Shown: one piece after another, positions 17,921-56,739 of the stretch
Position numbering within the stretch: position 1 is the stretch's first letter
Layout: each line of letters starts with the position of its first letter
Origin: Candidatus Moraniibacteriota bacterium
GTDB lineage: Bacteria > Patescibacteriota > Minisyncoccia > Moranbacterales > UBA2206
Direction: 5' to 3'
Assembly: GCA_049303795.1 (NCBI GenBank)
Contig: JBAQNM010000004.1
Coordinates: forward strand, 8,623 to 72,622
Length of the DNA: 64,000 nucleotides
Translations under genes and position numbers: made by a program
Notes under the pieces: model-generated
Seen by the model: only the letters and a program-made list of their open reading frames with translations
Told to the model about the DNA's origin: nothing
Databases searched by the model: none

Positions 17921-17980
17921 TTAATTTCACCCCCCTTCCCTTCTTTTTTTATTTTCATTTTTGTCTTATTTCTAAAATAA

Positions 17981-19733: not shown

Positions 19734-19773
19734 ACTTTTTTATTATTTTTAGTCTAACACACTTTTTGAAAAA

Positions 19774-20847: not shown

Positions 20848-20869
20848 AGTAGGATATTAAATTTGTTTT

Positions 20870-21253
20870 TTATTTTTTTAGATATTGAGCGATTTTTTCC
20901 AGGACCTCAGAAGGAGTAAAGTGTGATTTAATCAGATAATCATTGGCGCCCAAACCTAAACCTCTATCCACATCATCCTTTTGACTTAAATTAGTGAGTA
21001 ATACGACGGGAATATTTTTTAAACGCTCATCCTTTTTAATTTCCGCCAACATTTCTAATCCATCCATATATGGCATTAGAATATCCAGAAGCATTAGATC
21101 TGGAATATTATTATCATCCTTTAACTTTTCCAATCCTTCTATCCCATTACCTGCCGATATAACTGAAAAACCTTCTTGCGCTAACTTAGTATGATAAATA
21201 TCCATAACGAAAGTATCATCCTCAACAATCATTATTTTTTTCTTTTGTTCCAT
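20870..21253 (-). CDS. Standalone response-regulator receiver (CheY-like, PilH/PilG-like)
   Basis: MIVEDD...DLMLLDILMPYMDG...LKNIPVVLLT...K REC-domain hallmarks, with no output domain. Confidence 0.8.
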   Translation of the reverse strand: MEQKKKIMIVEDDTFVMDIYHTKLAQEGFSVISAGNGIEGLEKLKDDNNIPDLMLLDILMPYMDGLEMLAEIKKDERLKNIPVVLLTNLSQKDDVDRGLGLGANDYLIKSHFTPSEVLEKIAQYLKK

Positions 21254-21289
21254 AAAATTGAATAAATAATTAACTTAAAAAAAACGTGA

Positions 21290-22921
21290 CTAGCCAGTAT
21301 CTTCTGCTAGAGAAAAATTACATTCGGTCACACGCTCCACTTCTTCTATTGTAGTCAATCCCTTGAGTATTTTCAAGACCCCATCTTGTTCAATCGATAA
21401 AATACCAGAATTATCTCTTATTTTTTTTATCAAATCTTCATTTCCATGTTTTTCAATAATAATATTTCTCATTTCTTCTGTAATTAAAACTGCTTCATAA
21501 ATAGCTACGCGACCCTTAAGTCCTGTCCCATTGCAAGCCTCACAACCCTCACCATGATAAAATTTAATTCCATCAGTAATATCAACTCCTTGATTAGCCA
21601 ATTCTTCTTTCGAAATATTCTCGATCTTTTTTGCTACTAAACCACTTATAATAGGAGAAACTGTCCTTTCTTTTTTGCATTTCTCACAAATTCTACGTAC
21701 CAATCTTTGAGCAATCACCAAGCGAAGTGATGATGTCAATAAAAATGGTTCAATTCCCATATCAATCATACGAGGAATGGCCCCAATAGCTGTATTGGTA
21801 TGTAAAGTGGAAAACATTAAATGACCCGTAAGAGCAGCATGTACAGAGAGTTCTGCTGTCTCGGCATCTCGGATTTCTCCCACCATAATTACATTAGGAT
21901 CTTGACGTAGCACGGTACGCAATCCTGAAGCAAAAGTATAGCCAATTTCTGGTCGTATTTGACTTTGATTCATACCTTCAATAAAATACTCAACTGGATC
22001 TTCCAGTGTAATAATATTGCGATCCTCACTGTTTAATATTTTTAAGAGGGTGTAGAGTGTTGTTGATTTTCCACTGCCGGTTGGTCCAGTGAGTAAAATC
22101 ATCCCGAAAGTTTCTTTGATCGCTGATTTTATATCTTCTAAAGCTCTGCCAGCAAGTCCCAACATATCGACGCTACTTGTCCCGGTATCTTTATCCAAAA
22201 TTCTCATTACAACTTTTTCCCCGCTAACTACTGGTAAGGATGAAACACGAAAGTCAATATCCTTGCCTTTAAAATTAAGTCTAAAACGACCATCTTGAGG
22301 TTTTCTTTTTTCATCTATCTTTAGGTTTGCCAAAATTTTTATACGCGAAACAACTGCCGGACCAAGTTCAAGAGGAAAAATAAGGCTAACATGGAGCATT
22401 CCATCCACGCGAAAACGCACACGATAGTCTTTATCCATTGGTTCAACATGAATATCACTTGCCTTTCCCTCCACAGCGTGGCTAATCAACACCTCGACTA
22501 ATTTAGCCACAGGAGCGTCTTTCAAGTTCTCCATTTCACTCAATTTGTCATTTTTTTTCGCATCCTTCTCCGCCTTCTCATTTTTAGTGTTTTCGTCTTT
22601 AAAAGACTCGATAGCTTGATTTAAAGCTTCATTAGCCTCATCATAATGAGAAAAAAGTTCTAAAAATATTTTTTCCGAAACAATGTATGGTTCAACTTGC
22701 ATACTCTCCTTATCTGAAATAAAGCCCAAAACATTCAAGGCTTCTACATTCTCAGGATCAATCATGGCAACTTTTATTACCTTGTCCGTTTTTTCGAAAG
22801 CCATCATTTTATGCCTATCAGAAACCTCTTTCGGTATAATATTAACGACAGAACCAGGAATATTACGAGGTGCTTCTAATAAACTATTCACATTTTTTTC
22901 ATCGCTGATTCCGTCTTGCAT
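21290..22921 (-). CDS. pilB: Type IV pilus assembly ATPase (GspE family)
   Basis: Walker A GPTGSGKSTTL and C-terminal tetracysteine CEKC...CEAC. 543 aa. Confidence 0.9.
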   Translation of the reverse strand: MQDGISDEKNVNSLLEAPRNIPGSVVNIIPKEVSDRHKMMAFEKTDKVIKVAMIDPENVEALNVLGFISDKESMQVEPYIVSEKIFLELFSHYDEANEALNQAIESFKDENTKNEKAEKDAKKNDKLSEMENLKDAPVAKLVEVLISHAVEGKASDIHVEPMDKDYRVRFRVDGMLHVSLIFPLELGPAVVSRIKILANLKIDEKRKPQDGRFRLNFKGKDIDFRVSSLPVVSGEKVVMRILDKDTGTSSVDMLGLAGRALEDIKSAIKETFGMILLTGPTGSGKSTTLYTLLKILNSEDRNIITLEDPVEYFIEGMNQSQIRPEIGYTFASGLRTVLRQDPNVIMVGEIRDAETAELSVHAALTGHLMFSTLHTNTAIGAIPRMIDMGIEPFLLTSSLRLVIAQRLVRRICEKCKKERTVSPIISGLVAKKIENISKEELANQGVDITDGIKFYHGEGCEACNGTGLKGRVAIYEAVLITEEMRNIIIEKHGNEDLIKKIRDNSGILSIEQDGVLKILKGLTTIEEVERVTECNFSLAEDTG

Positions 22922-22929
22922 AGTTTTAT

Positions 22930-23760
22930 TTAGTTAGCTAGAAAAAATGGGTTGCTCTTACCACTATTTCCCGGTAACACGTTATTCAGCTCAATACTTT
23001 TATTCTTATCAATTTCCGCAATAACATCTTTACTGAAAACTCCATCAAAGAAAAAGTCGGTATTAATATCTTTTTCTTCAACTCTATAGTTATCAGCAAG
23101 GTAATTAAACTCTAATTCAGCAATCATTTGCAAGCTATCACTTAAACTTTCATCTTCCTTTTTTGTTGTTTTTATTTCCAAGCTAGAAACCTTGTTGAAT
23201 CTTTTAACTTTACTAAGACTATCTAAAAGGGCCATTTCATCAGCATATGTACCAAGCACAGACACTTTAGCAATAACCTTACGCGGATTAACCACATCGA
23301 AAGGCAACTTAGCTTCTGAATTTAAGACTGCAGCATTTTCAACATCAGGAGAAGTGCCTGCGGCTATCGCTGCCAAAGAAGAATCCACCTGATCAACAAC
23401 TTCCACGACAGGTGCAATCTCGACAGGCACATCCGATAAAGAAATATTCAAAACAGCCAAATTGTTTTTAATCGCTATTGAATTAATATTTTCAAAAATC
23501 TTCTCATCTTCTTTATCTGCTGGTATATAACTAAGAAGAGTATTTTTCCCGCTGACATCGGCATCCAAATCACTCGCCAATTTTTTTACATTATCATATC
23601 GATCACTCAACTTCTCTGATAATCGCTTCTGTTCTTTTAGTTTTTGATATTTTTCCTTAACACCATCAACTCCATTTGTATATGCGGGATAAACAGTCCA
23701 AATGAAAAAAGCTGCAGCTATGACTAATAATGACGGGGCTAATAATAATTTTATTTTCAT
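22930..23760 (-). CDS. PilO-like inner-membrane pilus assembly protein
   Basis: N-terminal TM helix plus coiled-coil. Sits between pilN-like and pilB. Confidence 0.55.
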   Translation of the reverse strand: MKIKLLLAPSLLVIAAAFFIWTVYPAYTNGVDGVKEKYQKLKEQKRLSEKLSDRYDNVKKLASDLDADVSGKNTLLSYIPADKEDEKIFENINSIAIKNNLAVLNISLSDVPVEIAPVVEVVDQVDSSLAAIAAGTSPDVENAAVLNSEAKLPFDVVNPRKVIAKVSVLGTYADEMALLDSLSKVKRFNKVSSLEIKTTKKEDESLSDSLQMIAELEFNYLADNYRVEEKDINTDFFFDGVFSKDVIAEIDKNKSIELNNVLPGNSGKSNPFFLAN

Positions 23761-23766
23761 ATATTT

Positions 23767-24282
23767 TTATTTAATTGCTAGGATAATTGAAAAATTAATA
23801 GTACCCTTTAATAGGTCCAGTTTAGTTTCTCCAGATGAAACAGAGGAAAAATAGTCAGAACTTTTAAATCCCATAATCTGCTTAGCTATCGCTTCATAAT
23901 TATTAGCATAACAATCAAGAGTTATTGTGCGGCTAACTTCATCATACTTATATGAATCAACATATGTACCGTCATTAATAGTAGCTGCTACCGCATTAAG
24001 ATCTTGATTCATATTTCGTTCTTCACCAATCAAACTATTCGCAACAAGCAATCTATTTTGAAAACCCATTACCTTTCTTGCTTCCTCTCCAGTTACGAAG
24101 TTTGAGCGTTGACTATCGAATTGCGTAGCAAAACTATCAATATTTTTTTGCAAATATTTTCCATAAAATATTAACCCGAAATAAACCAAAATAACTAGCA
24201 GTAATACTGCTGCTAATTTCAAGGTTCCTGCGCCAATTATACTCTCCCTCCTTTGTGTTGTGGCTAAATTTAAATTATCCAT
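23767..24282 (-). CDS. PilN-like pilus assembly protein
   Basis: Short cytoplasmic N-terminus, single TM (LKLAAVLLLVILVYFGLIFYG) and a periplasmic domain. Follows pilM. Confidence 0.6.
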   Translation of the reverse strand: MDNLNLATTQRRESIIGAGTLKLAAVLLLVILVYFGLIFYGKYLQKNIDSFATQFDSQRSNFVTGEEARKVMGFQNRLLVANSLIGEERNMNQDLNAVAATINDGTYVDSYKYDEVSRTITLDCYANNYEAIAKQIMGFKSSDYFSSVSSGETKLDLLKGTINFSIILAIK

Positions 24283-24303
24283 CTTTTTATTTTAATAATT
24301 ATT

Positions 24304-25437
24304 TTAATTTGCTTTTTCTTTTAAATATTCATCAACGCCACCGATTGCCGATCCAATACAAATTGAAAACTTTGATCGGATATCTGAAATTATTGGCTCC
24401 AAAACAGGATCATACTTAATTTTACTAAGCGGGTTACCAATCATTGTTTTTATTTTTAATTTATCAGAAAAATAATCAGAAATACCCACCATGCTAGCTG
24501 TTCCACCAGAAAGAATAATGGCATCTATTTTTTTCTCATCATTATCTTTGGTATATGCTTTTATTATTCTACTAACCTCTCCTGTTATTGTTTCTAGTGC
24601 AAAAAAACTAATTGGAGAATTTTGTTCAAAAAAGTTTTTTTCAGAAGTTTTAAGCTCTGAAGCTCTTTCATTGTCGATCCCCATACCTTTAGCAATCGTT
24701 TTTGTTATATCAAGCCCACCGGCATTAATTGTCCTGTTTACCTTAATAATCCCCCTTTCTACCAATATGGCGTTACAAATATTCGCACCAATATCAACTA
24801 TCACAAAACTTCCTGGATCATTCCCGATTAGGGCGCGAACGATTGGAAATGTTTCCAAATTAATAGCTCTCAGATTTAGTCCGGCAGTTTTAATTAAATT
24901 TTCATACTTCATCACCTTTTCCTTTGATGCAACAATAAGAAGAACCTGAAGCATAACATCATTGCCTGTTTTTTCATCTTCTTCTTTTTTTAAAACATCG
25001 TCATTCAAATTAACAACTGGGACATTTTTTGACACCTGCTTTTTTCCAATAACTTCCCAATTAATAACCACGTCATCTAAGGATGTTGGGATGTGCTTTT
25101 GCGCCTCAAATCTGATAGCTTGCTCCATATCATCGCTAGCTATTTCTGGAAAATCTATAAGCATAATCAGACCGCTGAAAGACGGCAAGGAAATATACAC
25201 GTTCTTTCCTTTAATATTAGCTTTTTTCAATATCTTTTTTAATAAGCGTGGCAAGGCAGCGTAAAAATATTCGGAATTCACATCCCCTTTTCCTGACATA
25301 CTTTCACCTAAAGACATCCATGCATAATTAGAGAGCACGGGACTGCCATTAACAACTTTCAACTCAACAACCTTAACAGAAGAAGTTCCAATATCAACTC
25401 CTATAAATGTATCATTTCCAAAAATTGACTCAAACAT
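24304..25437 (-). CDS. pilM: Type IV pilus assembly ATPase-like actin-fold protein
   Basis: IGVDIGTSSVKVVEL actin-like phosphate-1 motif. 377 aa. Confidence 0.85.
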   Translation of the reverse strand: MFESIFGNDTFIGVDIGTSSVKVVELKVVNGSPVLSNYAWMSLGESMSGKGDVNSEYFYAALPRLLKKILKKANIKGKNVYISLPSFSGLIMLIDFPEIASDDMEQAIRFEAQKHIPTSLDDVVINWEVIGKKQVSKNVPVVNLNDDVLKKEEDEKTGNDVMLQVLLIVASKEKVMKYENLIKTAGLNLRAINLETFPIVRALIGNDPGSFVIVDIGANICNAILVERGIIKVNRTINAGGLDITKTIAKGMGIDNERASELKTSEKNFFEQNSPISFFALETITGEVSRIIKAYTKDNDEKKIDAIILSGGTASMVGISDYFSDKLKIKTMIGNPLSKIKYDPVLEPIISDIRSKFSICIGSAIGGVDEYLKEKAN

Positions 25438-35510: not shown

Positions 35511-36494
35511 TTATTTATATTTTTCTATCTTAATATTTCCATCATCAAATACTTCTAAAATGAGAAAACCGCCTCCAATTCCGAACATCCCTGTCGGCGC
35601 TGGAATGAGAATTGCTCCCAATTCTTCGATAATTTTGGGAATATTCTTTCGAGAACGAAAATATTTTCCCAATTCCCGAACAATTCGCATGCTTCTTCCA
35701 GAGAAAAACCAAAAAATGATATCTAAAATTATTCGAGGAAAAATCAACCACCAGGTATTGAAAATTTTTATCATGAGTTTGGCAAAAAAGAGATTGACAC
35801 TTGAATGATAATGCCCATACAGAATCTCCTTAATTTTTTCCCGATTTGAACGAATTACATCGAGCAGATTTTTATCCATCAATGAATCGGGATCATGAAT
35901 AAATATAATAACTGGTTCGACAGAATTTTTTATGTCTTGTCGCATCTTTTTCATAAAACTTTTTTTCATCCTCCCGATATTGAAATCCTTGGCCTCTTTT
36001 TCTGTGAATAGATAAGGAACAAAAATAAACTTTAGCCCTTCAGCAACAAAAGAATAATACAACTCCTTCCTCCCGGCCAGACAAAGAAAGTTTCTGATGC
36101 TCGCCCTGGAAATTCCTCCCTGTTCGTCAGTTGACAGTGGTAGAATATAACCGCTTTCGTGATTGCCTAGGTTCAGTTTCAGTTTAGTCCCAAGATCATT
36201 TTCCAGATCAGATAGGACCGTTTTTGCCATCGCCAAGTCTCGTTCAGTTGCCAAGCCACGTTCAGTGGCGCTAGCCTCCATTAAATCACCATTGGAGATT
36301 CCCAGAGAAATACCCTCCTCTCTTATTGTTTTTTTCATTTTTTCGAAAAGTTTTTTTTCTTTGTTTTGCAGAAAAACTGCAAAAAATTGAATTACCATTT
36401 CGATAATATTCCTTTTTTGGGTCAGAAATTTTTCTGCCTTAAAAGGCGCAATATGAAGGTCGGAAAGAAATATCTTCATTTTAGTTTTCATCAT
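35511..36494 (-). CDS. Metallophosphoesterase (calcineurin-like) with a C-terminal membrane segment
   Basis: DLH...GDLME...GNHE motifs. Confidence 0.65.
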   Translation of the reverse strand: MMKTKMKIFLSDLHIAPFKAEKFLTQKRNIIEMVIQFFAVFLQNKEKKLFEKMKKTIREEGISLGISNGDLMEASATERGLATERDLAMAKTVLSDLENDLGTKLKLNLGNHESGYILPLSTDEQGGISRASIRNFLCLAGRKELYYSFVAEGLKFIFVPYLFTEKEAKDFNIGRMKKSFMKKMRQDIKNSVEPVIIFIHDPDSLMDKNLLDVIRSNREKIKEILYGHYHSSVNLFFAKLMIKIFNTWWLIFPRIILDIIFWFFSGRSMRIVRELGKYFRSRKNIPKIIEELGAILIPAPTGMFGIGGGFLILEVFDDGNIKIEKYK

Positions 36495-37328: not shown

Positions 37329-37446
37329 ACATAACTAAAAATTATTCTACTAAATGTAATACTTTTAAAAATAACAAAAAACCAGTACTACGGAATAGCT
37401 AGCTGGCTTTTTATTTTTCTAAAAGATCTTTTACTGTTATTAGCTT

Positions 37447-38460
37447 CTACCAACCCTCAACATTAAAATCAATTGGCTGAATAGTGAAAGCTGCTCCCGA
37501 CATAATAAATTCACTTTTAATTTTATCAGCTTTAGTTCTTAGAGAAGAAAATTCGTCATGCATCTGGGAAAAATAATCCGCCACTATTCCATTCGCTTTT
37601 TCTGTGGCATTAGCAACTGCTTCCCAATTTTTAACATCCGGGGATATTTCTTTTAGTTTTTTCAAATCTTCTTTTTCTAGAGCATTAATAAGCTCTCCAT
37701 ATTGTTCAGATTTAATCTTCAACTCATCGATAGGTTTTTTATAGTCAGCCAAACCATCAGGAGTTTCAAGCGTGTTATAGAGAGCTATTTCTTTATCAAG
37801 AGTATCCTTTAGAGCTTTAAAATAACCAATCAACCCCTCAAGACTCTCAGGTACAGTCTTAAATTTATTACTAAAAGCTTCGTCTTCCTTAATAAGCGCT
37901 ACAGTTATTTTTGCGTCATCAAGAATAAATTTTGTATAAGTATCATATTTTCTTGTTATTTTTTCCGCATCAGTGAAATAACTCTTAACTAAATAATTTA
38001 GAGCATCAACTTTTGCATTACTCTTTATCTGTGATGCGTCTTGCTGCATTTTAGAGATATTAACAGCCACTTCTCCTGATTTTGTTTTTTCCACATTGAA
38101 CTTTTCCACCACTAAATCTTTATTTTCTTCACTGTCGTATTTTTTAATAAGATCTGTTTCTGTTGAAAGTCCATTAATTGCATTGACGGAATCACTAAAT
38201 ATTCTTCGCTCATCCTGAATATATATTTTCGCCTGCTTTTCTTCCGCTTTTTTATTCCAATATGCATAGCCAGCAAAAGCGCCGCCGCCGATCAAAATCA
38301 AAAGGATGCAACCAATAATTATTTTCCATAAAATACCTCCTTTATTTTTAAGTACTTTATCATGAGAATACCCACACTTTTTGCAGAAAGAATTCTGCGT
38401 TGAGTTCAGTTCGCCACAACTTGGACATTGCCACGTTTGATCATCCATTTTTTCATTCAT
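37447..38460 (-). CDS. Zinc-ribbon / single-pass membrane protein with an extracytoplasmic helical domain
   Basis: N-terminal WQCPSCG...CKKCG zinc ribbon, then a TM helix (ILWKIIIGCILLILIGGGAFAGYAYW), then a K/E-rich helical region. Confidence 0.6.
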   Translation of the reverse strand: MNEKMDDQTWQCPSCGELNSTQNSFCKKCGYSHDKVLKNKGGILWKIIIGCILLILIGGGAFAGYAYWNKKAEEKQAKIYIQDERRIFSDSVNAINGLSTETDLIKKYDSEENKDLVVEKFNVEKTKSGEVAVNISKMQQDASQIKSNAKVDALNYLVKSYFTDAEKITRKYDTYTKFILDDAKITVALIKEDEAFSNKFKTVPESLEGLIGYFKALKDTLDKEIALYNTLETPDGLADYKKPIDELKIKSEQYGELINALEKEDLKKLKEISPDVKNWEAVANATEKANGIVADYFSQMHDEFSSLRTKADKIKSEFIMSGAAFTIQPIDFNVEGW

Positions 38461-38485
38461 TTTTTTGTTTTTATTTATTATTAAA

Positions 38486-39682
38486 TTATTTTTTATTTAT
38501 TATAGGCAGAATTCCTTCCGATCTAGCACCAGTAACTCGAACTAAATTATAGGCGACTGGTGTTTTTTTATCCTGGATTAATTTCCAATTCTTAGTTGCG
38601 ATTTCAACAGCCTTTATCGGAGAGCCACTAAGGGCAGTAGATTCGATGAAAATAAATTTATCGCTATTATATCCCAACTCAATCCCAGGCCAAACATGAT
38701 TATCTGTAAAAACTAGCACCGGATCAAAACCAAGATTCTCAAGCGCTGCTGTCATGAGTAGTGATAGGTCTATGCAAATACCACTTTTTGTAGAAATGAC
38801 CTGAGCAGGATCTCTTAGCTTTTGCATTTCTAATCCGTTATAGCTAAATGGTGATGCAATATATCGTATCTCATAATCAACACTCATCGCCTTAAAAATA
38901 GCTTCCACTTGAGCTTTTGCACCTTTTTCATCGCCAGCCATATATCCAAGCATTGCGTCTTTGGGACCACCAAATTCAGCTACATATTTCGCTGCAGCAT
39001 GGACAAGCTCAACAACAGATGGATCATCCTTATCAACTAATTTCAACACGTTTTGGGTATTATTCTTGCCATTTTTTTTCCAAATTATTTCATGAATTGA
39101 ATTGAAAAAAATATCACTTTCATTGCTAAGCAAAACTTTTTCACCAGTGGAATTTATTTGAAAAACTACTATTTTTAGCTTAGTCGATTGGGCTGCCTGA
39201 CTCAATTTTCCATATCCAGCATTCGAAAAAGAAGCACCCAGATCAAGCTGTTTAGTTTCCGGTTGAATGGAAACAGTTTCAATTTTTTTATCAGTAATAC
39301 CCTCTGCTTCCAATTCTATTCTCAATTGGGTATTTTGTTGACTGGAAACTCTTAGCGTACCTAGAATATTTTTATCATCTGCAATAAGAGGCATTGTTTT
39401 ATTTACAGGACTCCATTCTAAACCGACAGCTGATTGCTGATTAATGAATGCGTCTAATTCATTTTGCTTTCTTTCAATTTCTCTATTGCTACGATAAAAA
39501 CTCCAGCTGATAATTATTGCCGATACTATTAAAATAAAAAGAACGATGGAAATATTTCTTTTTGATTTAAAGAAAAAAATAATTCTATTTGTGAACTTCT
39601 CATCTTGAAGTCCGCTTCCGCAGGATGGACAATGTTTCCATTGAAAAATATCAACTTCCTTGCCACATTGATTACAGTTCAT
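38486..39682 (-). CDS. Zinc-ribbon membrane protein with a C-terminal transglutaminase-like cysteine-protease domain
   Basis: N-terminal CNQCG...CPSCG zinc ribbon and a TM helix. C-terminal SGICIDLSLLMTAALENLGF...NHVW matches a transglutaminase-like Cys/His core. Confidence 0.65.
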   Translation of the reverse strand: MNCNQCGKEVDIFQWKHCPSCGSGLQDEKFTNRIIFFFKSKRNISIVLFILIVSAIIISWSFYRSNREIERKQNELDAFINQQSAVGLEWSPVNKTMPLIADDKNILGTLRVSSQQNTQLRIELEAEGITDKKIETVSIQPETKQLDLGASFSNAGYGKLSQAAQSTKLKIVVFQINSTGEKVLLSNESDIFFNSIHEIIWKKNGKNNTQNVLKLVDKDDPSVVELVHAAAKYVAEFGGPKDAMLGYMAGDEKGAKAQVEAIFKAMSVDYEIRYIASPFSYNGLEMQKLRDPAQVISTKSGICIDLSLLMTAALENLGFDPVLVFTDNHVWPGIELGYNSDKFIFIESTALSGSPIKAVEIATKNWKLIQDKKTPVAYNLVRVTGARSEGILPIINKK

Positions 39683-40016
39683 TAAAGAGCTTTATATTTT
39701 TTATTTTTTCCACAAAACTACTAAGCCAGTCAGCACCAACTACTGGATTAATTTCATTTTCTTGTTTTTTGAATATATCTTTTTTTTGCAGATCAATTGC
39801 AATATCTCTGGCCATTTCAACATCATTCAAGCTAGAGGGTGTCTCCTGAACAACATAGCCAAATTTTTTTTCAGCAATCTCGTTAGCAATAGGAGTGCAA
39901 ATTTCTATCATTTCCTGCTCATCAGGATTTACAGCATAAACATTATTAGAAATAAAAAAGACTGGCAATGCAATAAGTACCAAGACTAATAAATATGTGC
40001 TTAAAGTTTTTTTCAT
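39672..40016 (-). CDS. Small secreted protein
   Basis: Signal peptide MKKTLSTYLLVLVLIALPVFFISNNVYA. Overlaps the start of the downstream gene. Confidence 0.5.
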   Translation of the reverse strand: MKKTLSTYLLVLVLIALPVFFISNNVYAVNPDEQEMIEICTPIANEIAEKKFGYVVQETPSSLNDVEMARDIAIDLQKKDIFKKQENEINPVVGADWLSSFVEKIKNIKLFNEL

Positions 40017-40178
40017 GAAAGATTGATTTAAAAAAATTAATTCCCCTCTTGTTTAATTTTATCATACTAAATATTTACAAAAAAAGCAATTTTACAACCC
40101 GAAACAATCCAGCTGTTGATTTATTTTTATTTACATGTTACTATCTTTTTGAAATAGATATTCGCTATTTTTTTTATT

Positions 40179-40250
40179 GGCCTCATCGTCTATCGGTTAG
40201 GACATCAGGTTTTCATCCTGAAAAGAGGGGTCCGACTCCCCTTGAGGCTA
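40179..40250 (+). tRNA. tRNA-Glu (TTC)
   Basis: GGCCTCATCGTCTATCGGTTAGGACATCAGGTTTTCATCCTGA..AGGGGTCCGACTCCCCT TGAGGCTA. Confidence 0.8.
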
Positions 40251-40365
40251 CGATTTCGAGACTTTCCGAAATTGTTGCGGTTTTTTCTCTTTTTATGCTT
40301 TTGGCCGTCCTTGACCCAAACCACCCATTCGCGGACGGCAATAAGGAACTCCCAAGGCAACTTAC

Positions 40366-41535
40366 CTATATTTTTTTGAAAGCTTGTTCAAAATCTTTAA
40401 TAACATCGTCTATATTTTCAAACCCAACGGAATATCTCAACAAATTTCCTTTAATATCTCGCTTGTCTGCCTCAATCCTGTTTTTATAAAAAGTAAGTAT
40501 GGCATGTTGTTCTATTAAACTTTGTGACCCGCCAAAATTAGTTGCGATATATGGAATTTTTAGCGCATCTATAAACTTGCTAGTATTTTTCTCAGATGCT
40601 TTCAACGAAAAAGTTATCACTCCTCCATAGCCACTCATTTGCTTTTTGGCTAAAATAAAGTCTGGATGCGATTTCAGACCAGGATACCAAACTTTTTCAA
40701 TTTTTGGATTATTTTCAAGATATCGAGCTATTGTTAAGCCGTTTTTATTATGTACTTCCATTCTTATAGCTAATGTTTGCAAGCTTCTTAGCAAAAGATA
40801 CGAAGTGTGGGGGTCAATTATTCCTCCAAATATATCCCGATAGTGCTGAATTTTTTCAATGAGCTTAGATCTTCCAGCTATAACTCCTGCAAATAAATCA
40901 TGATGTCCTCCTAGATATTTTGTGGCACTATGCAAAACTATGTCCGCGCCAAATTCAATAGGACGCAAATTCATAGGCGTAGCGAAAGTTGAATCTACTA
41001 TTGTGATTATTCCTCGCTTTTTTGCAAAGGTAGTTAGGAGTTTTAAATCAATGATTCTCAGAAATGGATTTGTCGGAATTTCCGAAAAAAACAAAATGGT
41101 ATTCTTCTTGATATACTTTTTAATATTTGCAAAATCATTAATGGGTATTTGAGTAGCTTCTATTGAAAATTTGGGAAGAATCTTATCGAAAAATTTTTTT
41201 GTATTTCGGTAGCAATCATCAGTATATAAAATATGTTGGTTTTTATTAACCAAAGATAAGATGGTCGTTGTTATCGCGCTCATACCAGAAGAAAAAAGCA
41301 ATGCTCTGTCAGCATTTTCCAGTTCTGCAATTTTTTCCTCAACGGCACTTTGAGTAGGACAACCATATCTTCCATATTTTATGCCCTTGATTTTGCCTTG
41401 ATAAAAATCTTTTATTTGCTTGGTATTTTCAAAATAATAAGCCGCCGTTTGTTCCAGTGGAATCGTAACGGATCTATTTTGTCTTTTTCTATCCCTTTCG
41501 CCACTATGAACGGCTTTTGATTCTATTTTTTTCAT
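40366..41535 (-). CDS. Cys/Met-metabolism PLP-dependent enzyme (cystathionine gamma-synthase / beta-lyase / methionine gamma-lyase family)
   Basis: PLP-lysine region DIVLHSATKYLGGHHDLFAGVI. 389 aa. Confidence 0.85.
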   Translation of the reverse strand: MKKIESKAVHSGERDRKRQNRSVTIPLEQTAAYYFENTKQIKDFYQGKIKGIKYGRYGCPTQSAVEEKIAELENADRALLFSSGMSAITTTILSLVNKNQHILYTDDCYRNTKKFFDKILPKFSIEATQIPINDFANIKKYIKKNTILFFSEIPTNPFLRIIDLKLLTTFAKKRGIITIVDSTFATPMNLRPIEFGADIVLHSATKYLGGHHDLFAGVIAGRSKLIEKIQHYRDIFGGIIDPHTSYLLLRSLQTLAIRMEVHNKNGLTIARYLENNPKIEKVWYPGLKSHPDFILAKKQMSGYGGVITFSLKASEKNTSKFIDALKIPYIATNFGGSQSLIEQHAILTFYKNRIEADKRDIKGNLLRYSVGFENIDDVIKDFEQAFKKI

Positions 41536-42505
41536 TTTGTTCTTCAGTAAATCTTATAAATTCATGATATTTTGGGTGTCGTAAAATACACCTTGAAAAC
41601 CCATATTTTTTATAGAAATCATTAACTGATTTTAAAACTTTTTTTCCAATTCCCTCTATGCTATTAAAAATATCGCCATATAAATTTTGAGTTTCTAGCG
41701 CATAAGCGCAAGTCAAAATTTTTCCATCTGAGCCGATGCTTATGCCGTTTTTCATATAAGAACATTCGCGTCCTTCCACTAATGTGCCTAGTGGATAACT
41801 CACATCTTTATCAATGATTATATTTTTAACCTTGTTATATTTTTTATTATTCTTAGAGGCTGAGCCGATATCAATCGGTTTATTGACGACAAACACAATG
41901 TCGTCGCCACAAAATTTTTTTATTTTTTCTATCTGTTTATAGTTTTCATTATTTAAAACAAGATTAATAGCTAGGGAGACAACAGTTGATTTATGATAAG
42001 AATAAATATTATTGGTATAAATTTTTCTGATCACTTTTATATTTTTAATTAAATTTTTGTAAGCGCCTTTCTTATTAACATAGTGATTATATTTTTCTTC
42101 TTCGAAAGAATCCATATTTATAATCAGACTGGCATTATTTTGCGCAAGAAATTTGGCAAGTTTTTCATTTATTACACTGCCATTAGTAAAAATGTAGGGT
42201 ATCAGTTTATTTTTATTAGCAAATTTTACAATCGCACGAAAATTTTTATTAATGACTGGCTCACCCTCGCCAGCAATTACTAAAACTTTTGCGCCGACTT
42301 TTTGTAACCTTAAAATAGATTCTTTAATTTTAGTAAGTGATAAGTTGCCGAGGTTATATTCCCTAAAACGATTACAGCACTTAAGACACTGATAATTACA
42401 CTCAAACGGCAGGTTGAGCATAATATAGTCAATCTCACTTTTTATAAATTTGCTGCCTGCCAGATGTAAATATTGAGCAGAGCCCCTTAAAATTAATTTT
42501 TGCAT
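41504..42505 (-). CDS. Radical SAM enzyme
   Basis: CNYQCLKC (CX3CX2C) cluster near the N-terminus and extra C-terminal Cys residues. Its 3' end overlaps the PLP enzyme gene by 32 nt. Confidence 0.8.
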   Translation of the reverse strand: MQKLILRGSAQYLHLAGSKFIKSEIDYIMLNLPFECNYQCLKCCNRFREYNLGNLSLTKIKESILRLQKVGAKVLVIAGEGEPVINKNFRAIVKFANKNKLIPYIFTNGSVINEKLAKFLAQNNASLIINMDSFEEEKYNHYVNKKGAYKNLIKNIKVIRKIYTNNIYSYHKSTVVSLAINLVLNNENYKQIEKIKKFCGDDIVFVVNKPIDIGSASKNNKKYNKVKNIIIDKDVSYPLGTLVEGRECSYMKNGISIGSDGKILTCAYALETQNLYGDIFNSIEGIGKKVLKSVNDFYKKYGFSRCILRHPKYHEFIRFTEEQNEKNRIKSRS

Positions 42506-49423: not shown

Positions 49424-50122
49424 TTATTTAGTGTAAACAATAACCGTCAGAGAACTTTTCAAGACAAAATTGTCTTTCTGTGATGATTCATCTTGATTAG
49501 AATTTTTAGGAACACGAAAAATATCACCTACCTTCAATTCATCGCCTAATGATTCAGCTTTATCTTCTAAATCTTTCTTAACATTAAGCGCTATAATATT
49601 AACGTAATTCTGACTATTCTCTAATTTATGTACAAAATTTAAAAGCTTGGGATAATCACCGGTCAAATTAATTTGCATAGAAAAATAATTTCGATAAGTT
49701 AATTTTTCTTCCAGACTCTTTTCAACTTCTTTTCCTTTACTTGATAAACTTTTACTACTAACTTTCGTATTTACTTTTGTATTTCCATTACTATCAATCA
49801 TTTCAATTGTAATCTCATTCCCCGTATTTTCAGCTAACTTTTCAATATACTCAATAAAACCAACATTCTCACTAACATTTAGTATGGAATTAATAGCATC
49901 TTTGTTTTTTTCAAATTCAGCATTAATCTCCTCCATTTGTGGAATTTTCTCAATTTTTTGTTTTTCCAGACTATTATCGATGATTTTCTCTTGAATTTTA
50001 TCAGCTCGACTTTGAATATTTTTAAACAATAAAGTTGTCACAAAATAAAATAGTGGGATTGCAAATACAATAAATACGAAGATATAAACTAAGCTTTTAT
50101 ATTTTTTATAAAAATTTTTCAT
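49424..50122 (-). CDS. PilO-like assembly protein
   Basis: N-terminal TM helix plus coiled-coil, directly downstream of the PilM-PilN fusion. Confidence 0.5.
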   Translation of the reverse strand: MKNFYKKYKSLVYIFVFIVFAIPLFYFVTTLLFKNIQSRADKIQEKIIDNSLEKQKIEKIPQMEEINAEFEKNKDAINSILNVSENVGFIEYIEKLAENTGNEITIEMIDSNGNTKVNTKVSSKSLSSKGKEVEKSLEEKLTYRNYFSMQINLTGDYPKLLNFVHKLENSQNYVNIIALNVKKDLEDKAESLGDELKVGDIFRVPKNSNQDESSQKDNFVLKSSLTVIVYTK

Positions 50123-51747
50123 TCTTGTTTACTATTAAGACATTCCTCTTTTATAGTTAAATCCATCTGAAAATTAACATTGTCTTTTGAAGCCAAGTTG
50201 GATATTGGCAAATTGACTTGAGAAAAACAACCTAGCTGTTCTAATTTCCCTTTAAAAGAAACCATGGATTCTCTTGTTTTCGCATGACCTGCTAAGTATA
50301 AAGAGAGATTTTTCGTAGCAAAATCAGTTATCTCAACTTCTTCAGTTGCAGCAGAAGCTAATTCGGAAAGCATTCGAGACCAATATAGCTGATCCCTATC
50401 AATTGTAATAATTTTCTCAAGATCAGAATTTATACCTGAAAATTTATCTTCATAATATTTAATCATTTCGTACTGAGTGCCACTCGATTGACTCATGCTT
50501 GAATCAGAAATTGTTGCTAAATTTAAATTTAATAAATTTCCAATACTAAATAAAAAAGAAAAAAAACAAAGCACAATAAAAGAAATTATTAATTCCCACC
50601 CCAAAACCAATTTAAATCTCTTAGCCCGAGCAAGTGCTTCTTTTTTATTTTTTGGCAAAAGATTTATCCCCTGTCCTTCAAAATCTTTATACATTGCCAA
50701 ACCTACTGCTGTAGAAAATTGAGTAGACCTATCTTTATTGATAATTGGCAAGTTATTTCCAAAATCAAGATTAACCCAAGGATCGCCGATACTAACCTCT
50801 TTAGCTAATCTTTTTGTCAAATAGGACAACAAACCTTTTAGATTTGATCCACCACCACAAATAATAATCTTTTTTATTTTTGCTCCGACTTCGCCATTAA
50901 TGCTTTGATAGAAATCAATTGATTTTTCAATCTCCATTGCAAGACTTTCCAAATATGATTGCATTGAGTTTAAGATTGAACTTTCTTTATTGACTTGCCC
51001 TAGGCCTTGAGAAAGCTTAATTTTTTCCGCATCCTTATTGTCTATTCCTAGACTTTTTGCAATTGCATCAGTTACGCCTTCTGAAGAAAAAGGAATACTG
51101 GATGTGAAGAAAGGAATTCCATCTTGGGCAACAATAAAATTAGTAATTTTTGATCCCAAATCAACAATCAGTGAAGCGCTTTTTAATTTATTTTTATTCT
51201 GAATAAGACTCCTAATCGCAGCAATAGATTCTGACTCTAATGCAACCACTTCGAGATTTGCCAATTCTAAAACTTCTAAAATATCATCTGCTATGTCACG
51301 AGAAACCGCAACAGTCAAAATACTTAATTTGTTATCTTTATTACCAATTAAGCGCCAATCGTAGTAAATTTGATCGATAGAAAGGGGAATACTCGCTTCA
51401 ATTTCCCATTTTATAGCTTCTTCAATTTCTGATTTTTCCATATGAGGGATCGTGATGATTCTCAGAAAAATCTTTGATTCAGGTAACGAGCATATCGCTT
51501 TTTTAGTATTAATTTTTTTAGGACCGGCACTGTTGATAGCTTTTTTTATAAGTTCAGCAACTCTCTTCTTATCCAAAATACGTCCATCCGCAAAATAATC
51601 GTTAGGAATATCTACCAAGGAATAAGCTCTAATATAATCGCTAGCATTTCTTTTTTCTAATTGCAAAACCTTAAAAGAGAGCTCGCTGAGATCTATCCCG
51701 ACATATCTGTCTTCAAAATTAATTATTTTTTTATTTAAAAAATTCAT
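50119..51747 (-). CDS. PilM-PilN fusion protein
   Basis: N-terminal actin-like PilM (YVGIDLSELSFKVLQL...), a TM helix (LVLGWELIISFIVLCFFSFLF), then a PilN-like C-terminal domain. 542 aa. Confidence 0.7.
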   Translation of the reverse strand: MNFLNKKIINFEDRYVGIDLSELSFKVLQLEKRNASDYIRAYSLVDIPNDYFADGRILDKKRVAELIKKAINSAGPKKINTKKAICSLPESKIFLRIITIPHMEKSEIEEAIKWEIEASIPLSIDQIYYDWRLIGNKDNKLSILTVAVSRDIADDILEVLELANLEVVALESESIAAIRSLIQNKNKLKSASLIVDLGSKITNFIVAQDGIPFFTSSIPFSSEGVTDAIAKSLGIDNKDAEKIKLSQGLGQVNKESSILNSMQSYLESLAMEIEKSIDFYQSINGEVGAKIKKIIICGGGSNLKGLLSYLTKRLAKEVSIGDPWVNLDFGNNLPIINKDRSTQFSTAVGLAMYKDFEGQGINLLPKNKKEALARAKRFKLVLGWELIISFIVLCFFSFLFSIGNLLNLNLATISDSSMSQSSGTQYEMIKYYEDKFSGINSDLEKIITIDRDQLYWSRMLSELASAATEEVEITDFATKNLSLYLAGHAKTRESMVSFKGKLEQLGCFSQVNLPISNLASKDNVNFQMDLTIKEECLNSKQE

Positions 51748-51801
51748 AATGTTATTATACCATAAGTTCTAGGATTTATCCTATTTTTTATTTAAATAAA
51801 A

Positions 51802-53340
51802 TTATAATTCTTCCCAAAGATCAATTGCATACTCCGTTCCAGTTGGAAAATAGGGCGGCGGACAATAGAGTAAGTTATTATCATAATTATAAAGTCGAAC
51901 AGCAAAGCCACTATTACCGTGTTGAAAATATGGTTGCAGATAAGAAGCAATTGCTCCATTAAAGACTAGCGACGTCTTTCCGCTAAATCCATTATCATTT
52001 ATACCAACTGTCCCTAGTTGCGCTAAAATAGCGGCGTCAACTACATATTGGTCCGGACAAGTACCCAAAACTCTAACGTCACGCTCAGCAATTAAGCCAA
52101 GCGAGTTGTCACAATTATAAGCAACATAACGAATATTACTATTAGTTGTTCCAATATAAATATCAGAGGAAGCGCCCCTGGCTACGACGGTTATTCTTTT
52201 ATTATTGACTGTACCATCTAGCCATATGCTATTATCAACAAAAATTACTCCGTTATTTATAATAGAATAGTTATCCAAACTAACACATTTTCCTCTACTC
52301 TGCCTATTTGATTGTATATAAGGACAAGATGAGAAAATACAACATGAAGATGTGGTACAAGTATTTCCATTGGTTCCACTATAAGATCCAGAAGCGCCAC
52401 TGACAATTCCATCAAAAGAGCTTATTACGTGAGTGTTAGAATTGGCCGAATTCACTTTGCATACATCATAAGTTCCATTGCTTTTTATTATTATCCTCCT
52501 TCCTTGTCCGGAATTATCAAAATAACGTCCAGAGCCAGATATAGCTTTGTTATACATATTAGTAAGATTAGCTGAAACTCCAGTGAAACTGACCTCGGAA
52601 ATAGGAAATTCTCTTCCGCCCATAAAAACATCTGGCCGTTCAGGAATAGTACCATCTGGCCAAGGATACGCCGGCGCATGAGCATCTGCTGGATTTACGG
52701 TTGTGTGAACTCCAAACTCTTGACTGTTTCCTCCCCATGTCGGATCGTTAAATCTTGGCAAAAGTGAACTAACCGTGTTATGCGCTAAGCCATCAAAACG
52801 AATGCCATCATTAGAATGCACTTTCCCATACACCTCAGCTTCACTACCAAAATTCATAAAGCTATTAGATAAGAATGAATACTCACTCCAGGAAGGTCTT
52901 CTAAATCTCACCTTAACAGTTCTTTTCATATCAGGAAATTTATTCGACCAGCCAGTTGATTCAACATTAATTATTGTAGAACCAATAGCCGGAGGTTCTA
53001 TGGAGAGTTGATATGCGCCCATGCTATTATAATACTCCACCGGATCAGGAGAAAAACCCATAGGCCCGCCAGTTTCCAAAAAAGAATTAATTTCTAAAGC
53101 AGTCTTGCCAGAAGTTTCATGAGCAAGATACCATCTGTAATAATATATTCCTGCTTCTGCAATTTGAAAAGCCTTTTCTTTTTCAACACGATTAATGCTA
53201 AATTTAATTTGTGAAGTAATGTACCCGAGCATAGAAACTAGTATTATCGTAACTACCGTCATAATGACAAGCACATAAGCTAATGTCGATCCGCGTTGCT
53301 TTTTAAAGCATGCTTCTTTTTTATTCAATACCTGTTTCAT
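51802..53340 (-). CDS. PilX_N-domain large pseudopilin-like protein
   Basis: N-terminus QRGSTLAYVLVIMTVVTIILVSMLGYI is PilX_N-like and lacks Glu5. Large Gly/Ser/Asn-rich beta-type C-terminal region. 512 aa. Confidence 0.6.
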   Translation of the reverse strand: MKQVLNKKEACFKKQRGSTLAYVLVIMTVVTIILVSMLGYITSQIKFSINRVEKEKAFQIAEAGIYYYRWYLAHETSGKTALEINSFLETGGPMGFSPDPVEYYNSMGAYQLSIEPPAIGSTIINVESTGWSNKFPDMKRTVKVRFRRPSWSEYSFLSNSFMNFGSEAEVYGKVHSNDGIRFDGLAHNTVSSLLPRFNDPTWGGNSQEFGVHTTVNPADAHAPAYPWPDGTIPERPDVFMGGREFPISEVSFTGVSANLTNMYNKAISGSGRYFDNSGQGRRIIIKSNGTYDVCKVNSANSNTHVISSFDGIVSGASGSYSGTNGNTCTTSSCCIFSSCPYIQSNRQSRGKCVSLDNYSIINNGVIFVDNSIWLDGTVNNKRITVVARGASSDIYIGTTNSNIRYVAYNCDNSLGLIAERDVRVLGTCPDQYVVDAAILAQLGTVGINDNGFSGKTSLVFNGAIASYLQPYFQHGNSGFAVRLYNYDNNLLYCPPPYFPTGTEYAIDLWEEL

Positions 53341-53403
53341 TTTTTATTTTTTTAATGTTATAAAATTATATACCTAAAATATGATACTTTCTTGATATTA
53401 TCC

Positions 53404-54081
53404 TTAGTGAATTCTGTCATAATCATTTAGGTTTCGCATTTCAACAAATGATTGCATTTCAATATTATCAGGAGCCCGATTAGGGTCAATATTTATTTTA
53501 AGATTAATCTTTATTAGACGAATATTGGTAATATTGGCTGGCGTTGTTAATGGAAGTTGAGAAGGAGCGCCAGCGTAGTTTCCATCATAATAATAGAAAA
53601 TTGGCTCACTTTCTGTATTTACAATTCTATTCGCAATAACAATAGTCTCCTCATCACCTCCAGGATAAGTTTTAGGCATTGTCATTGTTGGCTCGGTAAC
53701 ACCCATCAAAATATTTTGACCATCCTTATATATATGTAACCTTTCAGTTATTCCATCACGATTATAATCCGAATAGACGACGAAATCATTATCATCCGCT
53801 GATTCAATTGGATAGGAACCACTATCAGACTGTCTGGCACTCCTCAAATAACCTCCTATCATATTAACTCCTCGAGAAACTGCCATAGAAGATTGTCCCA
53901 TCTCTAGAGTATATGCATTATTTTTCCAGGTATTCATAAAAAGTAAGGTGAAACCTTCCATACCTATGGCAAAAATAGCAATAGCCACTAATGTTTCAAC
54001 TAGAGTCAAGCCTTTCCTGCTAATTCTTTCTCTAGAACTAGCAATTATTTTTTTTTGTTTGTTTAAAATTTCTTTTTTCAT
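53404..54081 (-). CDS. Type IV minor pilin / pseudopilin
   Basis: RKGLTLVETLVAIAIFAIG prepilin motif. The start overlaps the upstream stop (TAATG). Confidence 0.7.
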   Translation of the reverse strand: MKKEILNKQKKIIASSRERISRKGLTLVETLVAIAIFAIGMEGFTLLFMNTWKNNAYTLEMGQSSMAVSRGVNMIGGYLRSARQSDSGSYPIESADDNDFVVYSDYNRDGITERLHIYKDGQNILMGVTEPTMTMPKTYPGGDEETIVIANRIVNTESEPIFYYYDGNYAGAPSQLPLTTPANITNIRLIKINLKINIDPNRAPDNIEMQSFVEMRNLNDYDRIH

Positions 54082-55457
54082 TATATTACGGGCTGCAATC
54101 TTACAACTTCCAATTTAAGACTATCAACCTCAATTGCAACATCAACCTCTTTATCTAAAAATCCATCAGCTGTAACTTTTATATGATAGGTTTCAGGTAA
54201 AAATGGATCGGCCGAATCTGGAAAAAAAACTTTTCCATCACTGTCAGTTATTAGATCTTTTTCATAGCCCAGAGTGACATTGGTTAGTTTAACATTTGCT
54301 CCAGAAATAGTTGAGTCATCGGTATCACTAATTATTGTAGCCAAAAGAGCAGTTACTGTTTTGCTCGCTAGTTTCACTTCAACAGATAAAGTTCCGTCTG
54401 AGGATAATAATAGAAATGGCGTAGTTTCAGCTGTATTAATTATTTCGTAATCATCAGCTGTTGAACCTATTAAAGAAAGGTTATACTCTCCAGGACTGAC
54501 TGAGCTGAGTACTTCTTTACCACTAGAATCAGTTGTAATATCGTCATCAAAACTATAAACTGGAGTAAAGGGATCGATTGCCATATTGCCAAGTTTTCTG
54601 CCTCCAGTAAGATGAAAGTTGGCATTGGAAATCGCTTCATTAAGATAGTTAACACTAGAAATTTCGATATTGGCTAATTTATTTTGAACAATATCTTTTA
54701 CATTCATTGAACCAGTCACAACCGAAGCATGAATATCAACCGGGGTATAGAGGTTTTCAGGATAAGGAGGCATGGTCATGACTGTTTCGTAGCCTGATTT
54801 TGTTATAGCAAGTTGATATTTCTGGATGGAATCAGTTACATTACTACCCATAAAAGTTACATTACCTGAAGCGTCTGTCATGCCATAGGTATTAATCCCT
54901 GTATCTGGGTTATATATTTGCACCTTGGCATCGGAAATGCCAGCTCCACCTGGCTGATTACTAAAAATATTGACAGAAAGAATCCCATCTCCAATATGAG
55001 GCACCTCTTTGCCTGGAGGAACAAAACGCGAAACCAATTCAACTTTGCTGCTATTTTCTCCGCTACCCCATGAAACAGTCACGGTGACTTTTTTATAGTC
55101 CTCAAACCAAACCGTATCGGCAAAAGCAATCCCATCAAAAGGATCATCCACATACACTACATCGATGTGCACATTATAATGACTAGCATTTTCTGATACA
55201 TTCTCATCCTGAGGAATATTTCCTTCAATAGCGCCCCCGCTAGTACCAATATCATCATATTTAAGATTACGTATAATTTCTATTTTTTCATTAGCAATCG
55301 CAAGGGCACCAAGTCTATTTTTTGAGTCTTGAATATAGCGAATGCCCACAGATAAAACAGAATAGAATGTTACTGTGATTAGGGAAAAAATAAACAAAAC
55401 GGTCAACGCCTCGATCAACAAAAAACCTTTTTTATCAACAGATTGGCTTGATTTCAT
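54081..55457 (-). CDS. Large minor pilin (PilV-like)
   Basis: KKGFLLIEALTVLFIFSLI prepilin motif. 458 aa with beta-rich, carboxypeptidase-regulatory-like repeats. Confidence 0.7.
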   Translation of the reverse strand: MKSSQSVDKKGFLLIEALTVLFIFSLITVTFYSVLSVGIRYIQDSKNRLGALAIANEKIEIIRNLKYDDIGTSGGAIEGNIPQDENVSENASHYNVHIDVVYVDDPFDGIAFADTVWFEDYKKVTVTVSWGSGENSSKVELVSRFVPPGKEVPHIGDGILSVNIFSNQPGGAGISDAKVQIYNPDTGINTYGMTDASGNVTFMGSNVTDSIQKYQLAITKSGYETVMTMPPYPENLYTPVDIHASVVTGSMNVKDIVQNKLANIEISSVNYLNEAISNANFHLTGGRKLGNMAIDPFTPVYSFDDDITTDSSGKEVLSSVSPGEYNLSLIGSTADDYEIINTAETTPFLLLSSDGTLSVEVKLASKTVTALLATIISDTDDSTISGANVKLTNVTLGYEKDLITDSDGKVFFPDSADPFLPETYHIKVTADGFLDKEVDVAIEVDSLKLEVVRLQPVI

Positions 55458-55462
55458 TTTTT

Positions 55463-56683: not shown

Positions 56684-56739
56684 AATTTTTATTTTTGTTA
56701 AACAAGATGACCACTAAGATTTATAACCAAATTTATACG

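Follow-up and report, generated by a model that had tools for sequence, protein, structure and literature searches.

A transglutaminase-like membrane protein of Moranbacteria and its recurrent helical partner: a candidate two-protein envelope module

We analysed a three-gene operon (g1, g2 and g3) on the minus strand of a 64,000-nucleotide (nt) stretch of chromosomal DNA of Candidatus Moraniibacteriota (Patescibacteria, Candidate Phyla Radiation (CPR)), the whole of which is referred to as the window. The protein encoded by g2 is an uncharacterised and fairly ordinary member of the large and known transglutaminase-like (TGase-like) superfamily with an N-terminal zinc ribbon and a single transmembrane (TM) helix, an architecture common in its family. 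The new element is a recurrent helical membrane partner, encoded by g3: genes for enzyme and helical partner are adjacent in three sequence clades, one of them lacking the zinc ribbons. We propose that g2 and g3 form a two-protein envelope module consisting of an outward-facing thiol hydrolase and a membrane-bound partner, a reading to which we assign a probability of about 0.5.

Gene structure and conserved adjacency of g2 and g3

The operon comprises three co-oriented minus-strand open reading frames (ORFs) at 39672-40016 (g1, 114 amino acids (aa)), 38486-39682 (g2, 398 aa) and 37447-38460 (g3, 337 aa), confirming the observation of the original prediction, which had been made from the DNA sequence. 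g1 encodes a small protein with a signal-peptide-like N-terminus, g2 a protein with the order zinc ribbon, TM helix, beta-sandwich and TGase-like enzyme, and g3 its conserved partner composed of a zinc ribbon, a TM helix and a Lys/Glu/Asp-rich helical ectodomain. g1 and g2 overlap by 11 nt and a gap of 25 nt separates g2 from g3. A terminator-like hairpin followed by a U-run is located 30 nt after the g3 stop codon (37370-37415, minus strand), with a predicted folding energy of -16.4 kcal/mol and a z-score of -2.37 against shuffled sequences; owing to its bulge and long loop it was overlooked by a simple terminator scan. The overlap and short gap, the synteny conserved in related genomes and the hairpin after g3 support the operon structure as originally predicted. 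Upstream, the operon is bounded by a tRNA-Glu gene on the opposite (plus) strand (40179-40251). By inspection we noticed TGATAAAAT (40056-40064, minus strand), about 40 nt 5' of the g1 start, as a possible extended -10 element; we regard its assignment to g1 with low confidence, promoter rules for the host phylum not being established, and a consensus scan returned no -35/-10 pair upstream of g1 near TGATAAAAT.

Homologues of g2 with identities of 95, 70, 52 and 47-50 % and of g3 with identities of 96, 85, 62 and 48 % are present in related genomes. At three of these loci (L001, L002 and L003/L004) the gene order is the same, i.e. a small protein (101-112 aa), the enzyme (350-395 aa) and the partner (338-343 aa), while the flanks vary across the contigs: a GDE_C-like gene or an alpha/beta hydrolase, a 23S-IVP protein or TatD, and TatD or a Band_7 protein. 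We conclude that g1, g2 and g3 are real genes, because homologues at 47-95 % identity keep the gene order with differing flanks. Two further loci (L088, L089) contain the enzyme-partner junction, and a g3 homologue adjoins the g2 homologue at every g2- or g3-clade locus, those described below included, that is long enough to show it.

A profile search with g3 reached a second partner clade (clade 2, OZ246404.1), present at L005, L096/L097 (on a contig of 1.14 Mb), L098/L099 and L100. Its enzymes are ribbon-TM-TGase-like proteins of 415-428 aa, 29-33 % identical to g2, directly followed by ribbon-TM-helical partners of 327-333 aa, which are 21-28 % identical to g3 and pass the Zn_Ribbon_1 model (30.5 bits with a cut-off of 25). 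These clade 2 loci are syntenic, being located downstream of a gene for a class I aminoacyl-tRNA synthetase. The third clade is represented by L101, in which an anchored TGase-like protein of 351 aa is followed after 39 nt by an anchored helical protein of 336 aa, both without a zinc ribbon; comparison of this partner with the g3 profile by hhalign gave a probability of 89.6 % (E=1.9e-6) over the C-terminal 120 residues. As the pair of L101 does without the ribbons, the pair of ectodomains represents the conserved core and the zinc ribbons an optional add-on.

Beyond these clades the g2 family is large. At E<=1e-3 an exhaustive profile search returned 3173 cluster representatives, 676 of them reaching E<=1e-10; g2 is mostly covered from about residue 80 to 395. 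Metagenomes of JGI contributed just four extra loci, and among the GTDB species genomes no g2 relative was found using patterns of the close family only, the broad alignment being too divergent for patterns. A viral fold library and phage genomes contained nothing meaningful.

The first gene behaves differently from this pair. By inspection, g1 has a signal-peptide-like N-terminus reading MKKTLSTYLLVLVLIALPVFFISNNVYA before and VNP after the predicted cleavage site, with MKK as n-region, LLVLVLIALPVFFI as hydrophobic run and VYA preceding the cleavage in front of Val; no Pfam, NCBIfam or PADLOC family was assigned to g1. The small proteins at the g1 position are 35-37 % (L001) and 20-24 % (L002, L003) identical to g1 and the hydrophobic N-terminus is kept throughout, i.e. 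the protein diverges fast within the close clade. At the clade 2 loci, the small upstream ORFs are related neither to g1 nor to one another, and most of them have no signal peptide. Since a g1-like protein is not conserved there, g1 is a lineage-specific addition confined to the closest clade. The gene for a 114-aa protein, originally described as secreted and as preceding the operon, is present as stated but, overlapping g2, belongs to the unit, and it is not conserved outside the closest clade.

Domain architecture, active site and topology of g2 and g3

The N-terminus of g2 contains the cysteine knuckles C3-x2-C6…C18-x2-C21 of a predicted zinc ribbon (residues 1-25; 39608-39682, minus strand as for all features of g2 and g3), which is predicted to be cytoplasmic. 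All four Cys are retained in six of six full-length close homologues, the match to Zn_ribbon_3 (E=0.0028, 17.5 bits) staying below the Pfam cut-off of 27. According to hydropathy and structure model, a TM helix follows at about residues 44-62 (39497-39553), the most hydrophobic 19-residue window of the protein with a mean hydropathy of 2.67, and then an Ig-like/LEA-2-like beta-sandwich (residues 86-193; 39104-39427) and a TGase-like catalytic domain with papain fold (residues 198-390; 38513-39091).

A structure model of g2 was calculated with AlphaFold2 from an alignment of 70 family sequences and reached a predicted local distance difference test (pLDDT) score of 93.3 and a predicted template modelling (pTM) score of 0.78; a first model built from 8 sequences (pLDDT 68.7) had been discarded as too poor. 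It comprises a small N-terminal ribbon, a continuous helix (41-82), an all-beta domain (86-193) and an alpha/beta domain (198-390). In a Foldseek search with this model PNGase ranks first, matches to LEA-2-like proteins and to Af_0446 map to the sandwich, and g2 is structurally similar to solved TGase-like members. Sequence-based assignment is less clear-cut: g2 scores marginally above the cut-off for the Pfam family DUF553 (PF04473, 'Transglutaminase-like domain'; 21.5 bits with a cut-off of 20.5, E=1.7e-4) and below it for Transglut_core (PF01841; 17.3 bits with a cut-off of 23), and 21 and 10 of 70 g2 relatives match DUF553 and Transglut_core, respectively, at E<=1e-3. Searches of PDB sequences returned no match for g2, neither with the single sequence nor with the 70-sequence profile. 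By its marginal hidden Markov model (HMM) match, its fold and its active-site pattern, g2 is a member of the TGase-like superfamily. The Transglut_core/DUF553 superfamily, reportedly described by Makarova, Aravind and Koonin in 1999, includes PNGase and the structural-genomics proteins 3kd4 and 3isr, the identity to g2 being 10-16 %.

The predicted catalytic residues are highly conserved. Conservation and model position point to Cys303 (codon TGC, 38774-38776) as nucleophile and His329 (CAT, 38696-38698) as general base, and conservation to Glu347 (GAA, 38642-38644) as third triad residue. The motifs SGICIDLSLLM, containing Cys303, and NHVWPG, containing His329, are invariant among close homologues. 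For the wider family we used a set of 156 proteins, composed of 150 representatives and the close homologues: Cys303 and His329 are each kept in 153 of 153 aligned representatives, and position 347 is occupied by Glu in 143, by Asp in three and by Trp in one of the 147 representatives aligned there. Tyr274 (154), Gln287 (150) and Thr349 (143) are near-invariant, features that the family shows beyond those of Transglut_core/DUF553, as is the Glu in third position. Cys303 and His329 are 26 and His329 and Glu347 18 residues apart, agreeing with the spacings in PNGase, whose triad we take to be C191/H218/D235. In the model, C303 is located at the start of helix 303-316 and H329 at that of strand 330-335, E347 coming after strand 343-345; a Cys at a helix start and a His at a strand start occur likewise in papain-fold enzymes, so the arrangement fits the papain-fold active-site pattern. 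Glu is accepted as third residue in papain-like enzymes (PMC10318531). Cys303 is the only Cys of g2 outside the zinc ribbon. As judged from alignment and model, g2 thus keeps an apparently intact Cys-His-Glu site.

These data bear out the TGase-like Cys/His core named in the original prediction and show the triad to be conserved across the family rather than absent; its third residue is Glu347, not the Asp that had been expected. Regarding the profiles to which the original prediction had pointed, a DUF family, i.e. DUF553, is matched above its cut-off, whereas Transglut_core and the zinc-ribbon models fall below theirs in the window proteins.

In g3, the cysteine knuckles C12-x2-C15…C26-x2-C29 suggest a zinc ribbon (residues 10-31; 38368-38433), matched by Zn_ribbon_3 with E=2.5e-5 and 24.0 bits, again below the cut-off of 27; in 11 sequences no change occurs at C26 and C29, and conservation is at least 90 % at C12 and C15. 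A TM helix at about residues 43-66 (38263-38334; mean hydropathy 2.35 over residues 43-61) leads into a predicted extracytoplasmic domain of 271 residues (67-337; 37450-38262), containing 13.7 % Lys, 10.0 % Glu and 8.5 % Asp, little Pro and no Cys. The zinc-ribbon and single-TM front ends of both large proteins and the long, Lys/Glu-rich ectodomain of g3 accordingly hold as originally described. Composition and weak coiled-coil matches suggest this ectodomain being helical. Conserved positions are P234, G236, Y240, D312-K313-I314, E317 and the C-terminal E335-G336-W337. The ectodomain has no sequence relative in Pfam or the PDB, the g3 profile retrieving just generic zinc-ribbon and coiled-coil noise from the latter. 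We further observed that the C-terminal (V/I)EGW tail (VEGW in g3; window 37447-37461) is invariant in all close-clade homologues, whereas the clade 2 partner in the alignment (L005) ends in Phe.

The topology of g2 is supported by several features. The N-terminal side of its TM helix carries five Lys/Arg and no Asp/Glu, the C-terminal side four of each, and a more positive N-terminal flank is also found in the g2 homologues and in clade 2. Four-Cys zinc sites are expected in the cytoplasm, and beyond its ribbon g2 carries just one Cys, the predicted nucleophile. An N-terminal signal or anchor is present in 55 of the 156 family proteins, a zinc ribbon plus TM helix in 40 and another TM segment before the domain in five, while 29 lack a segment above the threshold used; several of these 29 have lipoprotein-type signals and a few look genuinely cytoplasmic. 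The domain is thus usually displayed outside the cell. For g2, an N-in/C-out orientation is strongly suggested, placing the catalytic domain, with good support, probably on the outside and not in the cytoplasm, as the original prediction of an extracellular enzyme had it.

The similar front ends of both proteins had led to the idea of a paralogous family of envelope proteins. A direct comparison of g2 and g3 from the window revealed no significant similarity beyond CPSCG, and L101 has no ribbons at all. In clade 2, by contrast, the first about 90 residues of enzyme and partner are 31-39 % identical (44-58 bits), sharing KCPKCG…GE.FC..CG and a near-identical TM helix ending in TGVFGG. The idea of paralogy is therefore supported within the family at large, but not directly by the window pair. 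A duplicated front end could account for the likeness, as could co-evolution of TM helices that pack together. In the clade 2 loci (L096-L100, L005) the TM helices of both proteins follow LWI..AV...L.L..TGVFGG, and a Pro-rich linker precedes the helix of the enzyme. Additional zinc-ribbon-TM paralogues, as considered originally, are missing from the window, the only other protein with CxxC…CxxC and TM segments being a prepilin peptidase (16193-16984). Outside the family, TcaA and GltJ resemble g2 and g3 in having an N-terminal cytoplasmic zinc ribbon, a linker, a single TM helix and an extracytoplasmic domain; the latter are unrelated, and the NCBIfam models of TcaA and GltJ weakly match a few other family members, not g2 or g3.

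Proposed mechanism and competing explanations

In the model we favour, g2 and g3 would act together as a two-protein module at the cytoplasmic membrane of a Moranbacteria cell, on its outer face. g2 would be anchored N-in/C-out by its single TM helix with the zinc ribbon in the cytoplasm, exposing the Ig-like beta-sandwich and, following it, the papain-fold domain with the Cys303-His329-Glu347 triad. It would most probably act as a thiol hydrolase, i.e. a peptidase, isopeptidase or amidase, on an envelope protein or peptide. g3 would be anchored likewise, its charged helical ectodomain binding the ectodomain of g2 as regulator, scaffold or substrate presenter. Such a physical contact is suggested by the gene linkage, and the likeness of the clade 2 front ends fits both proteins packing side by side. 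g1 might be a lineage-specific secreted accessory, possibly a substrate or inhibitor. The roles considered in the original prediction, cross-linking of the cell wall or host surface and sensing, are speculative.

Hydrolase rather than transferase chemistry is the less firmly grounded part of this model. It is suggested because the characterised prokaryotic members are mostly hydrolases and because of a neighbour at one locus, L092 (GCA_031554355.1, JAVBVJ010000021.1). Most characterised prokaryotic TGase-like proteins, e.g. LapG, PeiW and PNGase-type amidases, hydrolyse their substrates. At L092, 15 nt separate the gene for a distant ribbon-TM family member (P0033) from the next one, which encodes a lipoprotein whose match to the chagasin-type I42 cysteine-peptidase inhibitor domain (E=2.7e-11) is a hint of peptidase chemistry. 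This locus (L092 1-7966) is a cluster of several zinc-ribbon-TM proteins, comprising a 164-aa protein with ribbon and MamF_MmsF domain, a 170-aa protein with ribbon and two TM helices, a 413-aa ribbon-TM protein with Pro/Gln-rich linker and the 444-aa TGase-like protein; further lipoproteins are encoded besides that with the inhibitor domain. The pseudomurein endoisopeptidases PeiW and PeiP differ from g2 in being phage-derived and soluble with wall-binding repeats, and no sequence similarity to g2 was detected. Both the habit of the characterised relatives and the inhibitor neighbour make it unlikely that g2 is a true transglutaminase, cross-linking Gln and Lys of surface proteins such as the Lys-rich g3, g1, pilins or an S-layer and thereby building or stiffening the envelope. 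A somewhat more doubtful proposal is g2 serving as peptidoglycan endopeptidase or amidase in wall remodelling with g3 as membrane-bound activator, resembling the FtsEX/EnvC type of control: the Pfam scan revealed neither LysM, SH3b nor PG_binding in g2 or g3, there is no match to an NlpC/P60 or CHAP HMM, and an FtsEX-like ATPase is not encoded nearby. This proposal is a special case of the two-protein module and does not contradict it.

The best functional analogy for the pair is LapG, of the bacterial transglutaminase-like cysteine proteinases (BTLCP), with the receptor LapD. We rejected an identification of g2/g3 as LapG/LapD, since g2 has no match to a LapG-family Pfam model and g3 contains no HAMP, GGDEF or EAL domain in the Pfam scan. 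Unlike LapG/LapD, moreover, g2 is itself membrane-tethered, and genes for a giant adhesin or type 1 secretion are not found nearby. The host phylum is not known to have an outer membrane. The more specific version of our model, in which the membrane partner gates an outward-facing thiol protease as a functional analogue of LapD/LapG, is speculative and in our judgement improbable, and so is its alternative, the module being a surface counterpart of the sensor or effector domain of ProA.

Among named proteins, the 'anti-phage protein ProA' (NF058533) comes closest in sequence to the g2 ectodomain. Its N-terminal domain matches g2 with E=1.7e-25 over part of the beta-sandwich and the TGase-like core (g2 115-338) and is matched by 70 of 70 family members scanned; ProA of a Thioclava plasmid (1909 aa; 2079.5 bits against NF058533) is 27 % identical to g2 over 266 columns, with Cys, His and Glu aligned. 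This could point to a surface device against phages or other invaders, the shared domain sensing or cleaving a foreign protein at the membrane. We consider this highly improbable, given that PADLOC returned no match for g1, g2 or g3, that the surroundings are housekeeping genes and no defence island, that related genomes have retained the locus vertically and in synteny and that phage collections contain no homologue. An assignment of g2 as ProA itself was rejected, g2 reaching 88.8 bits with a cut-off of 1500 and covering profile positions 25-239 of 1903 only. ProA, related to Hhe, is a cytoplasmic protein of about 1900 aa combining DUF4011, a superfamily 1 (SF1) helicase (AAA_11/AAA_12), an MTES_1575 nuclease and DUF3320, all of which Pfam detects in Thioclava ProA and none in g2 and its neighbours. 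It carries no signal or TM segment before the domain, in contrast to the membrane-anchored g2 with its domain predicted outside. A description of ProA or its N-terminal domain was not found in the literature, so that the link derives from the NCBIfam name alone. On the Thioclava plasmid (L095; NZ_CP135444.1, 142005-158769) the ProA gene (7953-13682 of the locus) is divergent from an ExbB/ExbD/ExbD cluster, and a Ser/Thr kinase and PP2C phosphatase pair is located downstream on the opposite strand. According to tblastn, ProA-like N-terminal domains are present on 54 plasmids, mostly of Rhizobiales, Raoultella and Klebsiella.

A role in transmembrane signalling, an event outside being relayed via the TM helices to the cytoplasmic ribbons binding a regulator, comparable to anti-sigma factors, appears very unlikely to us. 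It would explain the small cytoplasmic ribbon on both proteins, the likeness of their ribbon-linker-TM regions in clade 2 and the recurrence of the ribbon-TM architecture in 40 of the 156 family proteins. The pair of L101 lacks the ribbon, which is thus not essential to the conserved function; at the examined loci no sigma factor or regulator is co-encoded, and the ribbons of g2 and g3 match generic zinc-ribbon models alone and below their cut-offs.

Several points weigh against the two-protein hydrolase module itself. In this superfamily, the sequence does not tell a peptidase from a transglutaminase, deamidase or amidase, and the inhibitor neighbour is found at a single locus, next to a distant relative. 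The charge bias of the g3 TM helix is ambiguous in the close clade, and a minority of the family is without any signal or anchor. Since the same domain is cytoplasmic in ProA and unanchored in this minority, an outward location is not intrinsic to it. Helical signal-anchored proteins encoded upstream of two distant relatives at L091 and L092 were considered as additional partners and rejected, hhalign comparison to g3 giving a probability of about 4 %.

Genomic surroundings and significance

The window contains 12 tRNA genes and housekeeping genes including UvrA, ClpB, RecG, LigA and GroEL, the last of which reaches no more than 88 % identity to metagenome-assembled genomes labelled Moraniibacteriota. 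The operon is surrounded by tRNA-Glu and genes for a pyridoxal phosphate (PLP) enzyme, a radical S-adenosylmethionine (SAM) protein, a DedA/VTT protein, a hydrolase and a glycosyltransferase. A listed ORF of 146 aa (40049-40489, plus strand) overlaps the tRNA-Glu gene and is almost certainly no gene. At 40366-42505 (minus strand), a radical SAM gene with a weak SPASM-type signal (41504-42505) overlaps the gene for a PLP enzyme of Cys/Met metabolism (40366-41535) by 32 nt, suggesting a coupled pair. Between the genes for the DedA/VTT protein and the alpha/beta hydrolase, the minus strand carries a 327-aa ORF (35511-36494) with no Pfam match at E<=0.1. At L001, the hydrolase and a GT4 glycosyltransferase directly follow the operon, so that an insertion or deletion difference seems to account for the 327-aa ORF and the DedA gene. 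A 590-aa ORF (12938-14710, minus strand) matches no Pfam family at E<=1e-5 and contains the Cys-rich motif CGNCYSPTTCGLMLCPGSVCGSC near its C-terminus.

Genes for type IV pili furthermore form two separate clusters on the minus strand. The first (16193-25437) encodes the prepilin peptidase mentioned above (16193-16984), a PilC-like T2SSF protein, a PilT-like ATPase, a PilB-like ATPase (21290-22921) and PilM (24304-25437). The second (49424-58485) encodes PilM (50119-51747), a PilX_N protein, an N-methyl pilin (53404-54081), a CarboxypepD_reg-domain protein, a T2SSF protein and PilB (56740-58485).

As a summary, our result is an annotation-level advance and no surprise. It concerns a family of 3173 representatives that has neither a functional annotation nor a dedicated Pfam model and whose sole named relative is the N-terminus of a phage-defence protein. 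The probably outward-facing domain, the apparently intact triad and a specific partner in at least three clades make g2 and g3 a concrete two-protein unit that can be tested experimentally. The envelope biology and host attachment of CPR bacteria are poorly understood, and a conserved surface enzyme is a reasonable target for studying them. If g2 were a protease gated by its partner, an episymbiotic CPR cell might use the pair to control its attachment to the host or its release; the two proteins would then constitute an envelope system of small-genome bacteria that has so far gone unrecognised, enabling an inside-out control of surface proteins.

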